From positions 6,112-70,111 of the forward strand of contig JAIPFY010000004.1 of the NCBI GenBank assembly GCA_021736385.1: a stretch of 64,000 nucleotides of DNA, read 5' to 3'. Position numbers and translations under genes: made by a program. Of this stretch, positions 35,515 through 49,027 are shown piece by piece. Source of the DNA: Spirochaetia bacterium. GTDB lineage: Bacteria > Spirochaetota > Spirochaetia > CAKZLE01. How positions within the stretch are numbered: the first letter of the stretch is position 1; the number at the start of each line of letters is the position of its first letter. The notes below the pieces were generated by a model that was not told where the DNA came from, made no database searches, and worked only from the letters and a program-made list of their open reading frames with translations.

Positions 35515-36762
35515 CTATCTGCTCTCTTCTGCAGCCAGATAGGCATCCTGTCCCTGCTGTGCTGCACAGACGGTGAGCAGCGGACCTTTTGTCAACGTGA
35601 TGAGGGCTGAACCCAGCGGTGCGGTGAGGATGATACTCATGACGGCGACAGCAAGGATGAGCATCCCTGGGGCAGTCTCCATACCGGAACTCTGCATGGC
35701 GATCAGTGGATACGAACCGATCGCAGCCTGTACCGTAGCTTTCGGCAGATAGGCGATGGTGATGAACAGTCGCTCTCTGGCTGTGAAACGGCTCCTGAAG
35801 AGCGAGAGCTGAACACCGGCACTCCTGCCTGCAAGCCCGATGGCTATGACTGCGATACCTCCTGCGCCTGCCTGCAGGGCTGTGGGGATATCGACCTCCG
35901 CGCCGATGAGGGCGAACAGCAGGATCTGCGCGAAGACCCATACCTTACCCAGTTTGGATGAGATCTCATGAGCCATATGTTCGTCTCTCTCCAGGATGTA
36001 GAAGCCTATGGCCATCACCGCGAGCAGTGCGGAGAAGGGGAACAGGGAGTTGATCCCCCGTTCGAACGAGAGGAGCATGACTGCGATCCCGATGACGATG
36101 AGCGTTCGTTTGGTGGCACGGGGATCCATCTTCCTGAACAGCAGATAACACAGATACCCGATCCCGATCCCCGTTGCGATCCCCGTGACGATAGAGACAG
36201 GGACCGAGATGATGTTCTGAAGCAGAGAGACCGACTCTCCCACATACATCCCGATGAACGAGGTAGCCAGCACGATAGCGAAGGCATCATCGCTGGAAGC
36301 TCCCGCAAGGATCAGGGTAGGGACCCCTGAATCCACACCCCGTCCCTCTTCGATGAGTTCGATCATATGAGGGACGATCACTGCCGGAGAGACGGCAGCG
36401 AGCACGCTGCCGAGCATCGCAGCCTCGAGGGTCGAGATCGGAAGGATATGGGGAGCTGTCAGGGTGATGGTGGAGACTTCGAACAGACAGGGGACGAACG
36501 CCATGAGCAGTGCTCGGAACCCGACCCGCTGCAGTGCCAGCCTGCTCAGTTCGAAACCTGCTCTCAGGAGGATGACGATCAGTGCTATGAGTCTGAGATC
36601 CGATGAGACACGCTGCAGTTCCGGGGTGATGAGATCCAATGCGAACGGACCGAGGAGCATGCCGGTGACCAGCAGGCCGATAAGACCCGGCAGGTGCATC
36701 TGTTCGAAGAGCCAGGCGACCAGGAGTCCTATGAGAATCAGTTCCGCTATCCCAAAAGCCAT
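35515..36762 (-). CDS. Cation:proton antiporter (CPA1 / Na+/H+ exchanger family)
   Basis: About 12 TM helices. Start set at MAFGIAEL (GGAGG RBS 7 nt upstream) rather than the ORF-track start. Confidence 0.75.
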   Translation of the reverse strand: MAFGIAELILIGLLVAWLFEQMHLPGLIGLLVTGMLLGPFALDLITPELQRVSSDLRLIALIVILLRAGFELSRLALQRVGFRALLMAFVPCLFEVSTITLTAPHILPISTLEAAMLGSVLAAVSPAVIVPHMIELIEEGRGVDSGVPTLILAGASSDDAFAIVLATSFIGMYVGESVSLLQNIISVPVSIVTGIATGIGIGYLCYLLFRKMDPRATKRTLIVIGIAVMLLSFERGINSLFPFSALLAVMAIGFYILERDEHMAHEISSKLGKVWVFAQILLFALIGAEVDIPTALQAGAGGIAVIAIGLAGRSAGVQLSLFRSRFTARERLFITIAYLPKATVQAAIGSYPLIAMQSSGMETAPGMLILAVAVMSIILTAPLGSALITLTKGPLLTVCAAQQGQDAYLAAEESR

Positions 36763-37030
36763 ATGCATACCTCCGGCAAATAGATACAGGACAGGCCTGT
36801 GTATGAGTCTGTTTGCAGGAGTCATCAGCCGTTACCGGCGGTTAGCAGGAGGAACCCCATCTCCATTCCCCGTTATCCTATAGGATTCTCACACAGGGTG
36901 TCAAGTTCGGATCCCGACAGGCTCTGCAGACTGATTGCGGGATCCGATAGACCGTTGTAGTCTTCTGCGGCATCAGAGAACCGGTACCCCCACAGCTGTG
37001 ATAAACAGCTGACAGAAGAGCTAAAAACAT

Positions 37031-37059
37031 GGTGATACGGTATTCCCGTATGCTATAAT
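37031..37059 (+). promoter_or_regulatory. Promoter with extended -10 (TGCTATAAT), overlapped by inverted repeat ATACGG-5-CCGTAT, upstream of the LTD/CotH genes
   Basis: TGnTATAAT at 37051-37059. Weak -35 GTGATA. Inverted repeat at 37035-37051. Confidence 0.5.
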
Positions 37060-37086
37060 GAGCTATTATGTGATGACAGGGTAGAT

Positions 37087-38034
37087 ATGAAAAAGTATAT
37101 AAGTATTGCTGGTGTGATCATGGCAGCCCTCAGTATCGCCGCAGCTGAACCTGCTGCAGCACGTCCTGAGATGATCGTGATCAATGAAGCGGCCTCGACC
37201 GGTGCGTATGATTTTGTCGAGCTGAGGAATCTCGGTTCCGAGGATGCCATCTTCGATGGCTCATGGTCCCTCATCGATGATCTCGAGGGCTCTGCCGACG
37301 GCGATAAGCCGGCGGTGATCCCTGCAGGGACCGTGATCCCTGCGAACGGGTACCTCCTCCTGGCCCCGTATAAAGTGCAGCTGCTCTCATCGAAGGTCCC
37401 GAAAGACCTCCCTGAAGCTGCCATACCACTGAGATCCTTTGCCCTCGGTTCCCAAGATAGCGTCACGCTGCTTCAGGGGATGCAGATCGTAGACCGGTTC
37501 TCCTGGGATACGGCGATCAACAGCTATGGGAGATCTCCTGTTGACAGCAATACGCTCACTGATCTGCTCATACCCACCCCCGGTACTGAAAACAGACAGG
37601 AGATCTATCATACCGGAGAGCTTCCGGTGAAGATCAATGAAGTCTGCTCGAAAGGACTCGATTACATCGAGCTCTTCAATACCTCAGACCGTGACTATCA
37701 GCTGGAGCCCGGAAGCTGGGAACTCCATGATACAGGACGCAACGATGTGTTCCGCTTCCCTGAAGCGGCAGTGATACCTGCACAGGGATTCCTGACCATC
37801 TATCCCGATCTGGTCCGATTGCCCCTCTCTGCACGGAAGAACAGTTATGCCTCCACTGCAGGGAACCGTTTCGGTCTGGGAGAGAGTGACAGGGTCTTTC
37901 TGAAGTATGATGGGAAGATCGTTGATACGATCGGATGGAGACTTCATGCGGCAAGTACGGGGAGATTGCCCGACGGTGGTGATCTCTGGGTGGCAGATCT
38001 CTTTCTGACCCCCGGACGAACGAACAGGAAATGA
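37087..38034 (+). CDS. Secreted protein with two lamin-tail domains (LTD)
   Basis: Signal peptide. Two repeats of the LTD signature (IVINEAASTGAYDFVELRN... and VKINEVCSKGLDYIELFN...), each followed by the G-x-W beta-strand region. Confidence 0.7.
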   Translation: MKKYISIAGVIMAALSIAAAEPAAARPEMIVINEAASTGAYDFVELRNLGSEDAIFDGSWSLIDDLEGSADGDKPAVIPAGTVIPANGYLLLAPYKVQLLSSKVPKDLPEAAIPLRSFALGSQDSVTLLQGMQIVDRFSWDTAINSYGRSPVDSNTLTDLLIPTPGTENRQEIYHTGELPVKINEVCSKGLDYIELFNTSDRDYQLEPGSWELHDTGRNDVFRFPEAAVIPAQGFLTIYPDLVRLPLSARKNSYASTAGNRFGLGESDRVFLKYDGKIVDTIGWRLHAASTGRLPDGGDLWVADLFLTPGRTNRK

Positions 38035-38047
38035 CAGGAGACAGAGC

Positions 38048-40684
38048 ATGAGAGGACGAACGACAGGTACGGCTGTCCTGCTGTCAGTGATACTGATCCT
38101 TGCAGCGGGATGTACGACAGAGCCTTCGCAGCAGGCGTATGAGCAGCTGCTTGCCGAGCGGAATCAGCAGTTCGCCCAGGCGAAGCTGCAGCCGGGACAG
38201 CAGCTGATCATCAATGAGGTCTCCCTGTGGAATACCACGGAACTTCAGGCGGATGACGGCACGTTCCCCCAGTGGATCGAACTACGCAACGTGACCGAAG
38301 AAGATCTACAGCTCGAGGGCTGGCGTATCGTGGTGACCGACCGGGACGGCACGGTCACCCGCTTCCTGCCGTTTCCCTCCCTGACCATGGAAGCCGGCTC
38401 GATCAGGCTCCTTGCGTTCGTACCGCAGGCTTCGAGGCTCCCTGTCTCTGCGATCAGGTTCACTGAAGCGCTGCCTGTGACCACTGCAGCGGTCGAACTG
38501 GTCGATGCGCAGCAGGTGACCGTTGACCGGTTCCTGATCGAGGAGACCGAAGTCAGTTCCTGGGAAGATCCCCCCCCGCGTGATATCTCCTATGCCCGTG
38601 AAGCCGACCACGGCCGCCTGATCCGAAGGAGCACCTCACCCAGTCCCGGTATGGACAACGAGCTGGGAATCCCGACCCCTGTGTTCACAGTCTCTTCAGG
38701 TTTCTATGATTCACTTGCACTGGAGTTCTCGACAGAGGACCTTCCGGCAGACTATGAGATCCGGTATACGATCAACGACGGGTATACCCGTGGAGAGGAC
38801 ATCTATGACACCCGGAAGCTGTGGAAGTACCCGACGCAGCACGAGGGACAGCTCTATACAGGACCGGTACCGCTGGATGCGACTGCTGTGGTGAAGGCAC
38901 GGGTCTATACCCCTACGGGGGCCTGCAGCCGCATGATCGTACGGACCTATCTCATCGATGAATCCACTGAACTGCCCATCTGGTCTCTGACTGCTGATCC
39001 TGCTGATCTCTGGAGTGCCGAGTATGGCATCTATACTGCCGCGGAGAGCACTGATGAGCCGAACTTTACCAAGAAAGGCTTCAGGATGGTGCATACGGAG
39101 TTCTTTGACCATGACCGGCAGCAGAGTCCCTCGTTCTCCGATACCTATCTCATGAGGATCTTCGGGAACTCCTCCAGATACTTCCTGAGCAAGTCGCTTG
39201 CACTCTATGCGAAGGCACCCGCATCACAGAAGCGGATCCCCAACCGGTTCTTCACCGGATCTGCTGCCCATATCGATGAGCTCTATGCTGTGGTATTGAG
39301 AACCTCGGGAGGGGACTATGAACGGGCGATGATCCGAGACGGACTGATGACCGGGCTCGCTACGGATCATGGGTTGGAGAAACAGGATATACGACCCTCT
39401 GTGGTGTTCCTCAACGGACAGTACTGGGGGATCCTGAACATACGCGAGAAGGTCAATGAGTACTTTCTCGAAGACCATGCAGGGATCGACCCTGACGTGG
39501 TCGATCTCATTGAGGGATCCTACTTTGATGAGATGGTAGCCAGCGAAGGATCGATGGCGGCTGTCACCGAGCTCTATGAGTACATCACCAGTGCCGATGC
39601 CTCGTACGATGTCCTCTATGATCGGTTCGCTGAGATGGTCGATATCGAGAACTTCATCGACTACATCATCTTTCAGACGTTCATCAATAATACTGACTGG
39701 CCGTGGAGCAACATGAAGATGTGGCGACCTCAGACACCGGAAGGGAAATGGCGATTCATCTTCTATGATACCGATGCCGGGTTCGATACCACCGAGTATT
39801 TCACTCAGAGCTTCCCTGACCCCGAGCGATTCCCGAAAGGGCGTGCTGATCATGATATGCTCCACTATCTTGCGACCGATTTACGTTCCGATGTGATCAG
39901 CAGACTCTTCAAGTCCCTGATCCGCAACCGGCGGTTCTATGATCAGTTCATCACCCGCTACACGGAACTGCTCGATACCCATCTCACCCCTGCATACCTG
40001 ACTGCTGAAGTGTCCAGACATGCTGCTGTGATCGCACAGGAGATCCCCAGACACGCGCAGCGGTGGTCGATCCTGGATACGTATAAGGACAACCAGTACT
40101 ATTTCTCGCAGGAGGCCTGGGAGCAGGAACTCTCTGTGCTCTATGAGTTCGCCCGTGAACGGACTGCCCATGTGAGAGAACATCTGGCCGCTTTTGCTGT
40201 GGAGCATGAACCGGTCGAGCAGCTACGGATCGCCAATGGTGACTTCGAGGGAGAGGATTTGAGCATGTGGAATCTGCGCTGGTCAGAAGAGAATGTACGA
40301 TCAGAAGTGGTGAAGGACGGTGATGGACATGTGGGATCCATACAGATCATCAAGGGTATGACCTACCCGTGGGATTCGGTATCCTTCGTCTATGACAACA
40401 TATTCCTCGAAGAGCAGACTGAGATCGAGTTCGCCTTCGATATGAGAAGCAGCAGCCGCCTCTCGAGCGGTGAATATGTCAGGGTGGTCCTCTTTCAGGC
40501 AGATACCAACGAACGGGTCTTCTCTCTGGATGTCGTGCCATCTCTCGAGTGGGAGCGGGAGAAGATCAGAGTCCGGTATACCGGTCCTCTGATGTTCAAT
40601 GGTCGCCTGCAGTTTCGCGTCGGTACGCTCAAAGAGGGGCGTGAGATCCTCATCGATTCGATTACCATGACGATAGTGGAGTAG
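38048..40684 (+). CDS. Lipoprotein: LTD - CotH atypical protein kinase domain - CBM4/9-like C-terminal domain
   Basis: Lipobox LAAGC. N-terminal LTD (LIINEVSLWNT...WIELRNVTEEDLQLEGWRIV). Central region with CotH-family hallmarks (FGNSSRYFLSKSLALYAK, NNTDWPWSNMKMWRP, YDTDAGFD). C-terminal NGDFEGEDLSMWN... beta-sandwich. AGGAGA RBS. Confidence 0.75.
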   Translation: MRGRTTGTAVLLSVILILAAGCTTEPSQQAYEQLLAERNQQFAQAKLQPGQQLIINEVSLWNTTELQADDGTFPQWIELRNVTEEDLQLEGWRIVVTDRDGTVTRFLPFPSLTMEAGSIRLLAFVPQASRLPVSAIRFTEALPVTTAAVELVDAQQVTVDRFLIEETEVSSWEDPPPRDISYAREADHGRLIRRSTSPSPGMDNELGIPTPVFTVSSGFYDSLALEFSTEDLPADYEIRYTINDGYTRGEDIYDTRKLWKYPTQHEGQLYTGPVPLDATAVVKARVYTPTGACSRMIVRTYLIDESTELPIWSLTADPADLWSAEYGIYTAAESTDEPNFTKKGFRMVHTEFFDHDRQQSPSFSDTYLMRIFGNSSRYFLSKSLALYAKAPASQKRIPNRFFTGSAAHIDELYAVVLRTSGGDYERAMIRDGLMTGLATDHGLEKQDIRPSVVFLNGQYWGILNIREKVNEYFLEDHAGIDPDVVDLIEGSYFDEMVASEGSMAAVTELYEYITSADASYDVLYDRFAEMVDIENFIDYIIFQTFINNTDWPWSNMKMWRPQTPEGKWRFIFYDTDAGFDTTEYFTQSFPDPERFPKGRADHDMLHYLATDLRSDVISRLFKSLIRNRRFYDQFITRYTELLDTHLTPAYLTAEVSRHAAVIAQEIPRHAQRWSILDTYKDNQYYFSQEAWEQELSVLYEFARERTAHVREHLAAFAVEHEPVEQLRIANGDFEGEDLSMWNLRWSEENVRSEVVKDGDGHVGSIQIIKGMTYPWDSVSFVYDNIFLEEQTEIEFAFDMRSSSRLSSGEYVRVVLFQADTNERVFSLDVVPSLEWEREKIRVRYTGPLMFNGRLQFRVGTLKEGREILIDSITMTIVE

Positions 40685-40688
40685 TGAT

Positions 40689-41624
40689 ATGAAACAGACG
40701 ATCCTGATCCTGGCTCTGATGAGCATGATTCTTGGCTGCACGACTGCACCTCCTGCAGTCTCGGACCGGGAACCGGTAGAGGCCGTGCCTGCCTTCATCG
40801 TGATCAACGAGGCCGCCTCGGAGGGCGACTTTGAGTTCATAGAACTCTTTGCCATCACCCCCCACCCGGTGATCTTCTCATCCGGCTGGAGCCTGATCGA
40901 TAATGCGAACAACTTCAGTGAAGGGGAGAAGGCCTTCATCATCCCTGAGGGGACAGTCATCCCGGCCTACGGGTATCTGCTGATCTGTCCGTTCACCGAG
41001 GCCAGGGCCAAGGACGTCCTCAACGATCCCGATGTTCCCGCCGATGCCCTCTGTGACATCTCCTTCTCTCTGGGTTCCAACGATTCGGTATCCCTGTACT
41101 ACGATTCACTGCTGGTTGACAGCCTCTCGTGGGAACATGATGTGAACTCGATCGGCAGGGTGACCGATGGTCTTGCGGAGATCTCAGATGAGCTGGTACC
41201 GACCCCCGGGATGCAGAACAGGACTGAACCTGTCGCACGGGGATCGTTCCCGATACGGATCAATGAGATCAACTCCAGAGGTGATGACTATGTCGAGCTG
41301 TACAATAGCGGTGACACACCATTCTCGTTCACCGAAGGTGATTGGGTCATCGAAGATATCAGAAAGGACCGGGACTATGAGATCCCGGGATCATTGGAGA
41401 TCCCGGCAGAAGGGTATGTGCTGCTGCGAACAGGGCATGATGACTTCTCAGTGAAGTTCGGCAGCTCTGACAGTGTCATCCTCAGATACAAAGATCGTAT
41501 CTTCGACAGCTATCGCTGGGGTGAGCATGTGAACTCTCATGGCCGGTATCCTGATGGGGCTGATCAGTGGGGTCCCATGGAGATGAGTCCGGGAGAGGAG
41601 AATCTCCCGGTCACAGCTGATTAA
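40689..41624 (+). CDS. Lipoprotein with two lamin-tail domains (LTD)
   Basis: Lipobox ILGC. Two LTD signatures (FIVINEAASEGDFEFIELF and IRINEINSRGDDYVELYNSG). 5 bp after the CotH gene. Confidence 0.7.
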   Translation: MKQTILILALMSMILGCTTAPPAVSDREPVEAVPAFIVINEAASEGDFEFIELFAITPHPVIFSSGWSLIDNANNFSEGEKAFIIPEGTVIPAYGYLLICPFTEARAKDVLNDPDVPADALCDISFSLGSNDSVSLYYDSLLVDSLSWEHDVNSIGRVTDGLAEISDELVPTPGMQNRTEPVARGSFPIRINEINSRGDDYVELYNSGDTPFSFTEGDWVIEDIRKDRDYEIPGSLEIPAEGYVLLRTGHDDFSVKFGSSDSVILRYKDRIFDSYRWGEHVNSHGRYPDGADQWGPMEMSPGEENLPVTAD

Positions 41625-42232
41625 CTCTCCTGAAAGTCAGACAGGAAGCTGGGATACCGTTTTGCATCGTAGAGGATCTCCAGCATGGCGGTATCTCTCA
41701 GGAAGTTTATCGCCCCAATATGGACATCAAGCACCTCGATGCCCAGTCGCTTCTCAAGGTCTTCGATCAGAGCCGGTCTGTTCTCTGGTCTGATCAACTC
41801 GATCTTCTCATACCGTACCGTCAGAATACTCTTGGAGCGTCGGAACCAGAGCAGCTCAAGGATCGCAGTGATCAGCAGGATCACCGTATTGACTCCGAGG
41901 ATGATCAGGGCACTGTACCCGGCTGCGGTCAGGGAGTTGATCACCGATACGGTGATAGCCAGGAACATGTAGGTCATCTCCCGGATCTGTACGGTCGTGG
42001 TACGGTAGCGCAGGATCCCGAAGATCGCAAAGAGACCCAGAGCGAGACCGAGTTCGAGATTGATACTCGAGAGCAGATAACAGAGAAAGAATACGGCGAC
42101 ACCTATGATATTGGACGTGAAGACATACTCCTTCTTACGGGACCCGGTATAGTAGAGAAACCGGGTGATGAGTATGAGCATCACGGTGTTGATCAGAAAA
42201 CGCACAGCAAGATCAAATAGGGGACTGTTCAT
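41621..42232 (-). CDS. DUF4956-family small membrane protein
   Basis: 203 aa, four hydrophobic helices plus a C-terminal soluble tail. AAAGAGG RBS. Overlaps the upstream VTC gene by 20 bp. This family typically neighbours VTC-domain genes. Confidence 0.6.
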   Translation of the reverse strand: MNSPLFDLAVRFLINTVMLILITRFLYYTGSRKKEYVFTSNIIGVAVFFLCYLLSSINLELGLALGLFAIFGILRYRTTTVQIREMTYMFLAITVSVINSLTAAGYSALIILGVNTVILLITAILELLWFRRSKSILTVRYEKIELIRPENRPALIEDLEKRLGIEVLDVHIGAINFLRDTAMLEILYDAKRYPSFLSDFQES

Positions 42233-43055
42233 GTGATAACCTCTTTATCAGGAGTTGTTTGCTTTTGAAGCTGTTGTATTTCAGGCTGGGATCCAGCTCG
42301 ATCATGCCGATACAGTATTTGCTGAAGCCCGAAGGTTGGATCCCGAGATCATGCAGGATCCGTGCAAAGGTCAGTCTCGGGACAGCCCCTTCATGCTTGA
42401 TCTCTGCGATGACCAGCCTCTCGGGCCGATTCGTATGTTCAGCAGATGAGAAGACCAGTGAAGTATCTATGGTGATTCGCTCAGCCCCTGACAGATGCAC
42501 CAGGGTGACCCGGTTGAATTCGAGGGACAGGGCCTTCATGAGCGACTGGGGGTCGTAGGGCAGGATCGGTCCTGCGAAGTCGATGATCGTCTCAAGGAGC
42601 CTGCTGTCAGATAGCAACTCATCGAGATCGCTGGTATCAGCAAGCCTGAGACGATGTTTTCTGGTCTTCCCCTTGAACTTCTCTTTTATCTCTGCAAATA
42701 CCAGATCGAATCCCCGGTATTCCCTGAGTCGCAGTTTGTATCGGTGCTCCTTACCGTTGTGATGTGAGAGGAACATATCGTACGAGGGGGTATCGAAATA
42801 GGCCGTGTAGTAGGGGAACAGCTGCATTCCCCCTTCGGTGGTGACCCTGTACTCATGAGCACAGGCTGCGAGTATCTCAGGCAGGCGATGTGATGAGAAG
42901 ACATACTTGGTATCGAACCGGTTGAGCAGTCCCACTTCTGTGGTCTCTTTGAGGCTGATCGGGTCGAACCGGCTAAGCAGTTCATCCATTGCAGAGAGTG
43001 GGTTCTGATGCTGTCGGGACGGTGAAGCTGTCATGAGGTAAGTATACCCTACCAT
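42213..43055 (-). CDS. VTC-domain protein (polyphosphate polymerase-like / CYTH-like domain of vacuolar transporter chaperone)
   Basis: 280 aa. Sequence features (TKYVF, Y..AYFDT, HRYKLRLREY, basic tunnel residues) match the VTC/PF09359-type fold as I recall it. Start codon uncertain (43055 or 43034). Confidence 0.55.
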   Translation of the reverse strand: MVGYTYLMTASPSRQHQNPLSAMDELLSRFDPISLKETTEVGLLNRFDTKYVFSSHRLPEILAACAHEYRVTTEGGMQLFPYYTAYFDTPSYDMFLSHHNGKEHRYKLRLREYRGFDLVFAEIKEKFKGKTRKHRLRLADTSDLDELLSDSRLLETIIDFAGPILPYDPQSLMKALSLEFNRVTLVHLSGAERITIDTSLVFSSAEHTNRPERLVIAEIKHEGAVPRLTFARILHDLGIQPSGFSKYCIGMIELDPSLKYNSFKSKQLLIKRLSHEQSPI

Positions 43056-43103: not shown

Positions 43104-43132
43104 TTGACATGAATCCACACTAAAGTTAGAAT
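43104..43132 (+). promoter_or_regulatory. Sigma-70 promoter TTGACA-17-TAGAAT for the feo operon; GCTAA-containing motifs just downstream may be a metalloregulator box
   Basis: Perfect -35 and near-consensus -10. TAGGCTAA downstream resembles a DtxR/IdeR half-site. Confidence 0.6.
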
Positions 43133-43174
43133 GAGCTAACAATATAAGAATAGGCTAATTTCAGAGGTGAAGAT

Positions 43175-46170: not shown

Positions 46171-46872
46171 ATGAACGTGAATGAATTGGCTAAACGCTAT
46201 CCGACAGCCTCCGAATATATATCACAGATCTATCTCATCTTGCGAGATTATACCTACTGCAATAACCGCCGCCTTGCCGATCATATCGGGGTCTCACCAT
46301 CTGCAGTCTCACAGGCGGTGGGTCGTCTCAAACGGCTCGATATCGCAGAGCAGGACAAGTACGGGATGATCATGCTCAGAGAGACCGGGGTCATCCTCGC
46401 CGAGCAGATCCTCAGAAGGCACTACCTGCTTGAACATCTGATGGTCAGGAAACTGCACTTCCCCTGGGATCTCGCTGACAAGGAGGCCGAACATCTGCAG
46501 GACAAGGTCTCTGATGACTTCACTGACCATCTCGAGCAGGAGCTCGGACATCCCAGAGTATGTCCTCATGGGAATCCCTTTCCCTGTAATCCTGATGCAC
46601 CTGAGATCCTCAGTGCCCCGAGGCTCATCGACTGCACCGAAGGTGAGCATATCGAGATCGTGCGTATCACCGAAGAGGGGGAGCGGGTAGAGGGACTGCT
46701 GCATCTGTGCTATCTGGAAGGGGTAGTCCCGGGTACTACCTACCGCATCACCCGGATGCTGACCGAGGAGCTCGAGTTGGCTGAAGATACCACAGGACGT
46801 CTGATCGTCCTTCCCCGCAGCTATGGTGAACACCTGCGTGTGAAGTCTGTGGCTCCTGCACTCACAGCCTGA
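46171..46872 (+). CDS. DtxR/MntR-family metal-dependent transcriptional repressor with C-terminal SH3-like (FeoA-like) domain
   Basis: wHTH. Metal-binding region (HLEQELGHPRVCPHGNPFP). C-terminal SH3-like domain. Adjacent to the feo operon. Confidence 0.8.
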   Translation: MNVNELAKRYPTASEYISQIYLILRDYTYCNNRRLADHIGVSPSAVSQAVGRLKRLDIAEQDKYGMIMLRETGVILAEQILRRHYLLEHLMVRKLHFPWDLADKEAEHLQDKVSDDFTDHLEQELGHPRVCPHGNPFPCNPDAPEILSAPRLIDCTEGEHIEIVRITEEGERVEGLLHLCYLEGVVPGTTYRITRMLTEELELAEDTTGRLIVLPRSYGEHLRVKSVAPALTA

Positions 46873-46901: not shown

Positions 46902-47016
46902 CATCAAACGGCCATGACTGCCTGCCATGCCTTCCTGCAACGTTCCCTGACACCGCTCGAGCAGGATCTCATCAGTGTCCAAGAGGCTCCTCCCTCATGT
47001 ATGAGTCTGCTGCAGG
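46902..47016 (+). repeat. Direct repeat copy 1 (about 115 bp, ISL3 transposase 5' end including the start codon)
   Basis: About 93% identical to 49211-49325. Confidence 0.85.
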
Positions 47017-47467
47017 AGGTCCCATTCAAGGTTGAAGGACACCGAATAACCTATCCTCTGCAAAAGAGTATCATCTCCCTTCTGGAAAACGGCTTTACGC
47101 TAAAGGATGTCTCTGAACTGCTTGATGTGAACCCCTCATTGGTGAAAGATATTGACAAGAAGCGGTTGGAATCGAAGTTCAAGGACAAGCCACCAGAGTG
47201 CTACAGTAGGCATATCGGCATAGATGAATCTCTCCTGCATACACACACCCTCGATATGCTACGGTGGTTAAGGATCTTGATACTGGTCATGTGTTGTTCT
47301 GTGAAGAAGGGAAGAAGAAGGAACAGGTATACCATTTCATCAATCAGATGGGGCCTGACTGGATGAGCCATCTTGTTGCAGTAGCAATGGATATGAATGA
47401 CCACTATGTCAGTGCCTTCAGAGAGAAGGCACTCCATCTGGAGATCATCTACGACCGATCCATGTGA
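46914..47467 (+). pseudogene. ISL3-family transposase, frameshifted and C-terminally truncated
   Basis: Two overlapping frames. IGIDE (first D) then, after a frameshift, LDTGHVLFCEEGKKKEQVYHFINQMGPD...VAMDMNDHY...IYDRSM. This reproduces the conserved ISL3 DDE region up to the second D. No third catalytic residue or further C-terminus. Confidence 0.7.
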
Positions 47468-47713
47468 ACAAATGAGGCTTCGTGCCTCATAATGACCCAT
47501 TCATGGTCACGAAACCTTCATCTGCCTGATATTTTTCCCGTGAGTGTTCATAATCTCCCGAGCAGATACTGTATATGTGAGATTGTTGTGTGTTTGTACG
47601 ATAGGTAGTGTTTGATAGTTATAGTTACCAAAATATTGAAAACTTAACTTAAATAGCTTCCATATATTCGTAAACTATTTGACTTGTTGGATGATTGGGC
47701 ATATCATACAGAT

Positions 47714-49027
47714 ATGAATGATATATTGCGCCTGATTATCGCGCAGCAACAGCAAAGATTGAAAAGCAGTTTCCCGATTGTATCTCGGGATACAGAGATC
47801 CTCCCGGTCCCAAGAAAAGCCACTATTATCATTGGAATCAGACGGAGCGGGAAGTCCACGTGGCAGCATGAAAAAATGGGATCGCTCTTGGATGAGGGTG
47901 TAGCTCATGAGAACATCTGCTATATTGATTTCTCTGATGATCGTCTCGAATTCCTCAGACTTGTAGACTCGGACCCCGCAGTGATCACAGATACTTACTA
48001 TGGGATGTATCCCCAAAAGCACGATCAGAAGGTGTACTTCTTCTTTGATGAATTGCAGTATGTCAACAGGTGGGCTCAGCTGGTTAACAGATTACAGGTC
48101 ACAGAATCCTGTGAGATCTATATCACCGGATCATCAGCTAAACTCCTTTCTAAGGAGATAGCAACGGAGTTGGGAGGAAGGTCGTTCACCTGGGAGATGT
48201 TCCCATTCTCATTCCGTGAATTTTTACGAGCGAACGGGAAACCGCAAGCCATCACTGATATTGCAAGCAGAGATGCAATCATCAGCGCATTTGGTGCATA
48301 TGTAGAGTTGGGAGGAATGCCGGAGCGGTTGGTGCTCCCCAAGGACGCGATGGCTCCCATCTATTTCCAGAACCTGGTCAACGATGTAATCACCCGTGAT
48401 ATGCTACTCAGGTATAATATGCAACACCCAGTTCAGTTGAAACGACTCGTTCATATCCTGATGAACAGTTATTCCCGACTCATCACGGTAAATAAGCTCA
48501 AACAGCGTCTTGCCGGAGAGCGAAACAAACTTTCCCCAGAATTGATCAGTGACTATATTGATAAGCTCATTGACTGCTATCTGATATGTACAATTCCTAT
48601 CCGCTCATACAATATGGCTGTTCAGGCTGTGAACCCAAAGAAAGTTTACTGTGTTGATCATGCGCTGGTTCAGGCTTTTTCTCGAGCTACATCTGAAAAT
48701 AATGGATTTGTATTGGAGAACATGGTGTTCATTGCGCTCAGGCGCTCCACCGAACATATATACTACTACAAGACTGCACTTGGTGATGAGATTGATTTTG
48801 CCGTTGGTCCAGATACTGATATCAAACTGATTCAAGTTTGCTGGGAAATGAGTAGGGAGAGCCGCACAAGAGAACGGGAACTGAAACCTCTTATTGATGG
48901 CATGGAAGAACTTGGACTTCAAGAGTCATGGATAATTACCGCGTACGAAGAAGAGGAATTCGAAGATGAGAAGACAGGTAGAACCATCCATCTTGTGCCC
49001 GCCTATTCTTGGTTATTACACAGGTAA
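47714..49027 (+). CDS. AAA ATPase of the AAA_14/DUF4143 family
   Basis: Walker A GIRRSGKST. Walker B FFFDELQ. C-terminal DUF4143-like region. Noticeably lower GC than flanks. Preceded by an AT-rich promoter region. Alternative TTG start at 47684. Confidence 0.75.
   Translation: MNDILRLIIAQQQQRLKSSFPIVSRDTEILPVPRKATIIIGIRRSGKSTWQHEKMGSLLDEGVAHENICYIDFSDDRLEFLRLVDSDPAVITDTYYGMYPQKHDQKVYFFFDELQYVNRWAQLVNRLQVTESCEIYITGSSAKLLSKEIATELGGRSFTWEMFPFSFREFLRANGKPQAITDIASRDAIISAFGAYVELGGMPERLVLPKDAMAPIYFQNLVNDVITRDMLLRYNMQHPVQLKRLVHILMNSYSRLITVNKLKQRLAGERNKLSPELISDYIDKLIDCYLICTIPIRSYNMAVQAVNPKKVYCVDHALVQAFSRATSENNGFVLENMVFIALRRSTEHIYYYKTALGDEIDFAVGPDTDIKLIQVCWEMSRESRTRERELKPLIDGMEELGLQESWIITAYEEEEFEDEKTGRTIHLVPAYSWLLHR

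Follow-up and report, generated by a model that had tools for sequence, protein, structure and literature searches.

What joins an exported CotH-family kinase to a VTC protein and a DUF4956 membrane protein is the question raised by five adjacent genes, here called A to E, in the window, the whole 64,000-nucleotide stretch of contig JAIPFY010000004.1 of a Spirochaetia bacterium (assembly GCA_021736385.1) that was analysed. Genes A, B and C encode exported proteins with lamin-tail domains (LTD), B being also the kinase, while E and D encode the VTC and DUF4956 proteins. CotH, VTC and DUF4956 genes form a known, unexplained association, and the window holds a spirochaete version of it that is independent of pel, convergently arranged and extended by LTD paralogues. 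The linkage of the two operons is real and conserved, but facultative. Our reading, offered tentatively and as a possibility that falls short of being probable, is that polyphosphate (polyP) and extracytoplasmic phosphorylation may be functionally linked here, a Vtc-like synthase and translocase being coupled with an exported kinase.

All five open reading frames (ORFs) were found at the coordinates given by a preliminary sequence-only reading of this DNA, and its domain calls for the five proteins (LTD, CotH, DUF4956 and VTC) were borne out by Pfam; an NCBIfam search of the same proteins yielded zero matches. The features of the block are as follows.

37087-38034, plus strand: gene A, 315 amino acids (aa), isoelectric point (pI) 4.8, two LTDs (Pfam E 4e-18), Sec-exported
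38048-40684, plus strand: gene B, 878 aa, CotH domain at residues 370-708 (Pfam E 1e-44), lipoprotein
40689-41624, plus strand: gene C, 311 aa, pI 4.2, two LTDs (Pfam E 1e-18), lipoprotein
41621-42232, minus strand: gene D, 203 aa, DUF4956 (Pfam E 3e-47), membrane protein
42213-43055, minus strand: gene E, 280 aa, VTC (Pfam E 4e-23), cytoplasmic, without signal peptide
42213-42232, minus strand: overlap of the VTC end with the DUF4956 start, 20 nt, translational coupling
41621-41624, no strand: overlap of the stop codons of C and DUF4956, TTAA, convergent genes with no intergenic spacer

Because the gaps between A and B (13 nt) and between B and C (4 nt) are so short, these three genes are taken as one operon. 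The sequence-only reading had described the trio and the VTC-DUF4956 pair as divergent, which is wrong: the two operons are convergent, tail to tail. Its overlap of VTC and DUF4956 is there, at the length listed. On its other side, the VTC-DUF4956 operon is divergent from a feoA-feoA-feoB cluster with a DtxR-family gene.

To what extent is this neighbourhood conserved? Seven further spirochaete contigs, whose flanks vary, contain the tail-to-tail block, one of them without CotH. Two loci reached through orthologues of CotH, L001 (47% identity, in a 4.3-Mb genome) and L002 (52%), have an identical arrangement including feoAAB-DtxR, as have three loci found via DUF4956 (L008, L009 and L010). The tail-to-tail abutment of C and DUF4956, ranging from a 7-nt overlap to a 10-nt gap, is seen in all five of these loci and in L090, and the A-B-C order is kept in L001, L002, L006, L007, L009 and L010. 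In L090 (7253-10536), VTC-DUF4956 abuts A-type and C-type LTD-LTD genes and the CotH gene is absent between them; both flanks differ from those of the window, and feoAB is absent within the flanks fetched. C orthologues adjoin DUF4956 in every linked locus. Elsewhere the parts come separately: the A-B-C trio has no VTC-DUF4956 pair nearby in L006 and L007, only CotH and LTD were found in L003/L004 and only CotH in L005, and the pair stands alone in the spirochaete locus L091. Since assembly GCA_018399255.1 carries the L006 trio and a DUF4956 gene (L092) on different contigs, co-presence survives the loss of adjacency; this DUF4956 gene is preceded by a truncated ORF, putatively VTC, at the usual VTC position. 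Keeping the two operons together appears to be selected for in one spirochaete clade. The sequence-only reading had spoken of a self-contained module, which is too strong given that the parts are separable in L003-L007, L090 and L091 and that about 80% of DUF4956 loci have no CotH. Two of these loci carry further ORFs: upstream of VTC in L090 are two unannotated ones (474 and 365 aa) without a Pfam match, and after CotH in L005 (10939-13131) are ORFs of 366 aa, with a weak DUF1207 match, and 357 aa, with none.

A DUF4956-alignment scan, taking one genome per species, gave 80 loci, 77 of them in Bacteroidota, and the ORFs of all 80 were searched with iterated profiles seeded from the window proteins. 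In 74 of the 80, DUF4956 is directly preceded by VTC on its own strand, and in 73 of these 74 the two genes are at most 50 nt apart or overlap; they are an obligate pair. A CotH gene occurs at a distance of up to 10 kb in 16 of the 80 loci (13 of the 50 with full flanks), and in these 16 an exported CotH is about 1.4 kb or less from the pair. Of 18 such CotH ORFs, 17 fall inside this 1.4-kb limit and 14 share the strand of the pair, which uniform placement over 10 kb to either side would not give. Thirteen Bacteroidota loci encode an exported CotH no more than 1.4 kb away, mostly on the strand of the pair and following a DUF2490 gene. These CotH proteins are lipoproteins or are sorted by the type IX secretion system (T9SS), and some carry LTD. 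LTD-only genes adjoin the pair in L090, L021 and L041, and small LTD-only proteins precede it in two Bacteroidales loci.

The Bacteroidota operon (L011-L087) can be written as [CotH], small exported proteins, VTC, DUF4956, DUF2490, [CotH], the brackets marking facultative members; the recurrent part is VTC-DUF4956-DUF2490, with or without CotH, as in L083:9230-12766. It resembles the spirochaete locus in its VTC-DUF4956 core, facultatively joined by exported CotH and/or LTD. Unlike the same-strand Bacteroidota operon, the spirochaete locus is convergent and has no DUF2490, and Bacteroidota CotH proteins, unlike B, are often short CotH-only lipoproteins or T9SS-sorted. The DUF2490 protein (about 237 aa, with a signal peptide, Pfam E 1e-22) accompanies the pair in 46 of the 80 loci. 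It has invariant arginines R49, R79, R114, R116, R138 and R177 (in A5), and a PDB search returned only non-significant porin matches (E ~1.5). It is probably an outer-membrane protein and could be an anion-selective outer-membrane channel. In B. thetaiotaomicron, BT3498-99 are named DUF4956/DUF2490 (PMC10434189). Just upstream of VTC, two families of small signal-peptide proteins (about 138 aa) recur in 18 and 13 Bacteroidota loci within L013-L087 (for example L055:1903-2319 and L042:8473-8889); one has weak CarboxypepD_reg-like matches and the other no Pfam match. A T9SS-sorted run also precedes the VTC operon in the Flavobacteriales metagenome-assembled genome that holds L042 (L042:1158-8470), consisting of an arylsulfotransferase-like protein, two CotH proteins, at least one of which also has LTD, and a Reg_prop propeller protein.

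The three-way association has been met before. In streptococci, clostridia and bifidobacteria, accessory genes for cotH, a "poly-phosphate polymerase", DUF4956 and DUF4832 directly adjoin pelDEADAFG (Whitfield et al. 2020, 10.1101/768473 = PMC7112168), so that the triad recurs in pel loci of Firmicutes and Actinobacteria (10.1101/768473). In S. intermedius, SIR_1592-1594 encode a predicted secreted CotH, a DUF4956 protein described as four transmembrane helices, MgtC-like, plus ACT, and a VTC protein (PMC12345266); deletion of CotH or DUF4956 halves aggregation in sputum medium (PMC12345266), and the two deletions shift the Pel level in opposite directions (PMC12345266). In C. perfringens, NELoc-2 carries VTC genes, each followed by a gene with the annotation "tubulin/FtsZ" cytoplasmic-membrane protein, and a CotH gene (PMC2879425). 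The statement of the sequence-only reading that CotH, VTC and DUF4956 are recurrently adjacent for reasons not yet explained agrees with this literature (10.1101/768473; PMC12345266). Like the pel accessory set, the window places an exported CotH, a cytoplasmic VTC protein and a DUF4956 membrane protein side by side. It differs from that set in that pel genes are absent for at least 10 kb on either side in the window, L001 and L002, which establishes the triad outside pel loci and counters the statement of the S. intermedius authors that they could not find it there (PMC12345266). Other differences are that the two groups of the window are convergent and the pel triad is one co-directional operon; that the window CotH has LTD, Ig-like and CBM4-like modules and the pel CotH has FN3; that the window CotH is flanked by two LTD-LTD paralogues, in a diderm spirochaete host; and that no DUF4832 was found among the genes scanned.

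These distributions are what bears on the best-surviving alternative, which we consider unlikely though it deserves the most weight: that two independent modules happen to be neighbours, their adjacency inherited and not selected. VTC-DUF4956 would then have a role independent of CotH, for example in membrane-associated polyP or phosphate/metal homeostasis, and LTD-CotH-LTD would be an unrelated surface kinase or adhesin. The pair without CotH in about 80% of the sampled loci and in L091, the trio without the pair (L006 and L007), CotH with LTD only (L003/L004), CotH alone (L005) and the solitary LTD-CotH genes P0024 and P0038 of Bacteroidota are all as expected from it; the operons are on opposite strands and are therefore not co-transcribed, and the whole region, feoAAB-DtxR included, is syntenic in the closest relatives. 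Such inheritance is harder to square with the spacer-free abutment that persists in L090 amid different flanks lacking feoAB, with recurrence in Bacteroidota in other arrangements and with other CotH architectures (the 17 of 18 CotH ORFs within 1.4 kb), with recurrence in the pel loci of Firmicutes and Actinobacteria, and with LTD-only genes beside the pair in two phyla.

The activity of protein E is the next question. It matches PF09359 with 82.7 bits (cut-off 23, E 4e-23) over 231 of 235 model positions, and lacks a signal peptide, an SPX domain and a membrane domain. A single-sequence PDB search gave no match, and E was recovered by profile only: a profile of 25 VTC homologues matched just yeast Vtc2 (3G3O) and Vtc4 (3G3Q), weakly (E 0.002-0.003), with coherent motif matches in the alignment. 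Residues invariant among the 25 homologues include R46, D48, K50, R105, K107, R109, R111, E122, K124, R182, R193, D197, E218, K220, S245, K246 and Y247. Thirteen basic residues are invariant in the family, and the charged residues alternate in the pattern of a triphosphate tunnel. The weak profile alignment gives these correspondences.

R46-x-D48-x-K50 of E: R196-x-T198-x-K200 of Vtc4p
K50 of E: K200 of Vtc4p, by the implied chain offset
E218-x-K220 of E (LEVK): E426-x-K428 of Vtc4p
K246 of E (SKY motif): catalytic Lys-458 of Vtc4p (FSKF)

Lys-458 is the catalytic lysine of Vtc4p and is dispensable in hydrolases (Martinez et al., PMC4641920). Hydrolytic tunnel enzymes have an acidic patch made of E-x-E on the first strand and E-x-E on the penultimate one, in whose place Vtc4p has basic residues guiding polyP as the chain grows (PMC4641920). 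Three of the four patch positions could be mapped in E by the weak alignment: two carry a basic residue, R46 and K220, like Vtc4p, and the third has the acidic D48 in place of the threonine of Vtc4p. The residue signature of E appears predominantly polymerase-like, to the extent that the mapping, which is only as good as the weak alignment, can be relied on.

Protein D covers the full length of PF16316 (161 bits, E 3e-47) and is about 50% identical between Spirochaetota and Bacteroidota. Its AlphaFold model (pLDDT 76) has five transmembrane helices followed by a C-terminal beta-alpha-beta-beta domain. Its basic loops (SRKKE, RYRTT..R and RRSKS) suggest an N-out/C-in topology, in which the C-terminal domain would face the cytoplasm, with VTC, together with the invariant residues K34, R75 and R77. 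A PDB sequence search gave no match. The C-terminus has weak ACT-like fold matches that are not significant (E > 0.1), and no MgtC or ACT family match was found in Pfam. The yeast VTC complex synthesises polyP in the cytosol and translocates it (PMC4641920). E and D resemble the eukaryotic complex in having a VTC tunnel domain with the Lys-458 equivalent and basic tunnel residues, the acidic patch being mostly missing at the three positions mapped, and in the obligatory pairing of a cytoplasmic enzyme with a small polytopic membrane protein. They differ from it in that E has no SPX domain, the catalytic domain and the membrane domain belong to different proteins, DUF4956 and not a Vtc1-type domain is the membrane partner, and one patch position is Asp.

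The same residues bear on a regulatory role for the pair. In that account VTC would be a tri-/polyphosphate hydrolase or a signalling tunnel enzyme and DUF4956 an MgtC/ACT-like regulator, the pair sensing or adjusting phosphate or Mg status and thereby tuning a CotH-modified surface polymer. Most characterised tunnel enzymes are hydrolases (PMC4641920), D48 supplies an invariant Asp at one acidic-patch position, the weak ACT-like fold matches are in keeping with the description of the S. intermedius DUF4956 protein as an MgtC-like transmembrane part plus ACT, and in that species the opposite Pel shifts after DUF4956 and CotH deletion, together with a silent VTC deletion, look regulatory. We nevertheless judge this account improbable: two of the three mapped patch positions share the basic character of Vtc4p, the equivalent of Lys-458 does not vary although hydrolases can dispense with that lysine, the 13 basic tunnel residues are invariant, the ACT-like similarity is below significance with no Pfam match to either family, and DUF2490 after the pair in Bacteroidota suggests a trans-envelope route, not a cytoplasmic signal.

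The products of the other operon are predicted to reach the envelope. The sequence-only reading had called its three products exported, and inspection of their N-termini agrees, placing A, B and C as predicted outside the cytoplasm: A has a Sec-type signal, MKKYISIAGVIMAALSIAAA, without Cys, and would be a soluble exported protein; B has the lipobox LAAGC (C22); and C has the lipobox MILGC, ending at C17. After its lipobox, B has an LTD (about aa 50-200), an Ig-like CHB_HEX_C/Fn3_assoc module (about aa 205-305), the CotH kinase (about aa 311-720) and a CBM4-like beta-sandwich (about aa 745-878; CBM, carbohydrate-binding module). The CotH domain matches PF08757 with 153.7 bits (cut-off 23.8, E 1e-44; model positions 2-321 of 322). 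The N-terminal LTD (25 bits, cut-off 34) and the Fn3_assoc/CHB_HEX_C matches that precede CotH are sub-threshold in Pfam; in a Foldseek search the N-terminal domain of the model matched the Ig fold of lamin A/C (3GEF), and LTD is also the annotation of orthologues. There are 17 full-length orthologue clusters of B. An AlphaFold model built from 31 homologues (pLDDT 89, pTM 0.81) resolves four modules after the signal, and in Foldseek its CotH domain matches B. cereus CotH (5JDA/5JD9; E 1e-14, target TM-score 0.74). Sequence-only PDB searches, with the single sequence or with a 31-sequence profile, gave no match, and the fold search alone recovered CotH. The tail had been described as CBM4/9-like; Pfam finds no match in B itself, while PF02018 is called in B orthologues and the tail of the model matches CBM4/16/22 structures in Foldseek (4BJ0, 2Y64 and others; E 1e-8, TM-score ~0.7). 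The sequence-only reading had proposed a check of 38048-40684 for the Mn/ATP-site Asp/Lys residues of CotH; B keeps the catalytic Asp/Asn/Asp residues.

39695..39775, plus strand: CotH catalytic core, D550, N555, D574 and D576
39695-39697, plus strand: codon of D550
39710-39712, plus strand: codon of N555
39767-39769, plus strand: codon of D574
39773-39775, plus strand: codon of D576

All four residues are invariant in the 31 homologues. In a multiple alignment including Bacteroidota CotH, D550 and N555 align to "NFD..HN" of 5JD9, and D574 and D576 to "WDYD"; pairwise BLAST of the window CotH domain against one Bacteroidota CotH was uninformative, and the multiple alignment was required. In B. 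subtilis CotH, mutating the catalytic D228 or the metal-binding D251, which are 23 residues apart, inactivates the kinase (PMC7821199), and the spacing in B matches theirs; N555 corresponds to the Asn of the catalytic loop. Because the invariant D550, N555 and D574 align to essential Bacillus CotH residues, B is predicted to be a catalytically intact, active kinase. It is like Bacillus CotH, a Ser/Thr kinase of the spore coat (5JD9/5JDA), in its Pfam family, its fold and these residues. Unlike Bacillus CotH, with which its structure-based identity is 14%, B is an exported lipoprotein of a non-sporulating spirochaete, has extra LTD, Ig-like and CBM-like modules, has no CotB/CotG-like substrates encoded nearby, and would act in a compartment without a pool of adenosine triphosphate (ATP).

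The flanking proteins A and C are paralogues with 37% identity. Each matches PF00932 in two stretches, with 66 and 68 bits respectively (cut-off 34.3). A orthologues are present in L001, L006 and L090, and across the related genomes A-type orthologues lack the lipobox Cys and C-type orthologues have it. Both proteins are acidic (pI 4.2-4.8) with an ordinary Ser+Thr content of 13%. For bacterial LTDs, a part in targeting to the membrane or envelope has been proposed (PMC6085458). The sequence-only reading had proposed testing A and C as substrates of B, a role that would be analogous to that of CotB/CotG for CotH in the Bacillus spore coat, and the tight operon with gaps of 13 and 4 nt, the conserved A-B-C order, the intact kinase residues and the phosphorylation by Bacillus CotH of proteins encoded beside cotH (PMC7821199) would suit that role; we hold it to be of low probability, since the serine-rich basic repeats of CotB/CotG are missing from A and C, L090 keeps both without CotH so that their role needs no kinase gene in cis, B itself carries glycan-type binding modules (CBM4-like and CHB_HEX_C/Fn3_assoc), the phosphoryl donor of an exported kinase would be left unexplained, and none of our results gave any indication that the flanking LTD proteins are its substrates.

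How, then, might the two operons work together? In the reading that we tentatively prefer, the tail-to-tail operons would serve one extracytoplasmic process, and VTC-DUF4956 would be the bacterial counterpart of the eukaryotic VTC complex. The VTC tunnel enzyme would polymerise phosphate from nucleoside triphosphate on the cytoplasmic face of the membrane, and DUF4956 would take up the polyP chain and move it into the cytoplasmic membrane or through to the other side; DUF2490 may extend the route through the outer membrane in Bacteroidota. Outside, B would phosphorylate an envelope target, which is more likely to be a glycan or surface polymer than a spore-coat-type protein because of the CBM-like and CHB_HEX_C-like modules of B and the pel association elsewhere, and the LTD proteins may be its anchoring or scaffolding partners. 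The exported phosphoanhydride polymer would serve the kinase, as phosphoryl donor or as co-substrate or matrix partner. Fam20C and Fam20B are atypical kinases of the secretory pathway that also act outside the cytosol, Fam20B on a sugar, and offer a functional analogy only; the Fam20 enzymes draw on ATP that is brought into the lumen of the Golgi, and we know of no comparable ATP supply to the bacterial periplasm. Given a periplasm without an ATP pool, the exported polymer is the obvious candidate donor or partner for CotH. Four things are inferred from these comparisons: that polyP is made, that DUF4956 translocates it, what the kinase acts on, and that CotH uses exported polyP, the last of which we regard as a long shot. 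An equally distant prospect is the widest version of the idea, in which VTC-DUF4956 would be a widespread prokaryotic polyP synthase-translocase, possibly of the type ancestral to eukaryotic VTC, and polyP, not ATP, would energise exported CotH kinases acting on envelope glycans or proteins.

Several points weigh against this proposal. On the enzyme side, the mapping of E residues onto Vtc4 is weak (E 0.002-0.003), and D48 is invariant where Vtc4p has threonine. The best 150 of 3752 VTC representatives are all standalone proteins of 239-347 aa, with no VTC-membrane or VTC-CotH fusion among them. Sequence and fold searches did not relate DUF4956 to any transporter of solved structure or to the membrane domain of Vtc1/Vtc4, and a literature search found no biochemical or functional study of a bacterial VTC or DUF4956 protein. 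As to the linkage, either module can occur without the other, CotH being missing from about 80% of DUF4956 loci and several LTD-CotH genes being solitary, and the spirochaete adjacency could partly reflect shared descent. In S. intermedius the VTC deletion had no phenotype, aggregation included (PMC12345266); with VTC silent and the other two deletions acting oppositely on Pel, these results misfit a linear VTC to DUF4956 to CotH pathway. The LTD proteins are disfavoured as electrostatic polyP binders, their acidity making direct binding of this kind unlikely. Finally, a polyP-dependent protein or glycan kinase of the CotH fold would be without precedent, and we know of no protein kinase that uses polyP as donor.

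Regulation of the block was considered at its two ends and at the convergent junction. Two features lie upstream of gene A.

37032..37059, plus strand: promoter-like site of the A-B-C operon, GTGATA, 16 nt, TGcTATAAT, 10/12 matches, TG-extended
37035..37051, no strand: 6-bp inverted repeat ATACGG-N5-CCGTAT in the promoter spacer, weak evidence

The sequence-only reading had seen dedicated regulation here. Both the extended -10 and the 6-bp repeat are present. The -10 site sits 28 nt upstream of the gene A ATG, and the orthologous operons of L001 and L009 are likewise preceded by a TGCTATAMT extended -10. The region contains 6 promoter-like sites against a shuffle expectation of 5.4, which is chance level, and it is position and conservation that argue for 37032-37059 as a candidate promoter. 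At the equivalent position L001 has a different repeat, ATGTCA-N7-TGACAT. The upstream regions cannot be aligned and their inverted repeats differ in sequence, so a conserved operator was rejected and dedicated regulation is no more than a possibility. On the minus strand, the sole terminator-like site for the transcript is a hairpin at 41388-41369 (minus strand), inside gene C and about 230 nt downstream of the DUF4956 stop. As the zero-spacer junction has no room for a terminator, the convergent transcripts probably overlap, which might be relevant for mutual regulation. At the other end, the promoter-like site of feoA and the VTC operon share a 119-bp intergenic region. The best promoter match in the region is the one upstream of feoA (TTGACA-17-TAGAAT, 11/12; 43104-43140, plus strand), with its -10 overlapped by the inverted repeat GTTAG-N6-CTAAC (43125-43140), at which the DtxR-family regulator of 46171-46872 may have its operator. 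A link of the block to iron found no support: the feoAAB-DtxR adjacency is kept only in the closest spirochaetes, and FeoB matches in Bacteroidota are weak GTPase-domain ones. An iron-response entry for DUF4956/DUF2490 in B. thetaiotaomicron is not significant (p 0.175).

The wider surroundings comprise genes for rhamnose catabolism, RNase II, an HD protein, an Na/H exchanger, feoAAB, DtxR and polyamine metabolism. No pel, sporulation or glycosyltransferase gene was found within 10 kb on either side of the five-gene block, in line with the remark of the sequence-only reading on sporulation genes. Rfam gave no match within the block; its sole match is a full-length fluoride riboswitch (RF01734; 36809-36873, minus strand; 59.9 bits, E 5e-15), directly upstream of an Na+/H+-exchanger-family antiporter gene (35515-36825, minus strand). 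The listed start of that ORF overlaps the aptamer, so translation probably begins at a Met further downstream; a sigma-70-like TTGACA-18-TAGGAT (36904-36875, minus strand) fits as its promoter. Downstream of the DtxR-like gene are, just after it, an ISL3-family transposase helix-turn-helix fragment (46914-47366, plus strand) and then an AAA_14/DUF4143 ATPase gene (47684-49027, plus strand); in L001 and L002 a Peptidase_C11 gene takes the position of the ISL3 fragment and the ATPase gene.

If the modules are independent, this is an ordinary neighbourhood of poorly characterised envelope genes. The window and the cross-phylum pattern show that the association of CotH, VTC and DUF4956 is not peculiar to pel loci, and add LTD proteins and DUF2490 as recurrent partners. 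Bacterial polyP synthesis is attributed to PPK1 and PPK2; bacterial VTC proteins form thousands of clusters (3752 representatives) and are uncharacterised, and a Vtc-type polymerase with a membrane partner would, if the proposal is true, be a second, export-oriented bacterial polyP route. Exported CotH kinases are likewise common and are without an obvious phosphoryl donor outside the cytoplasm; a polyP-fed CotH, if true, would solve the problem of energising a kinase in an ATP-free compartment.

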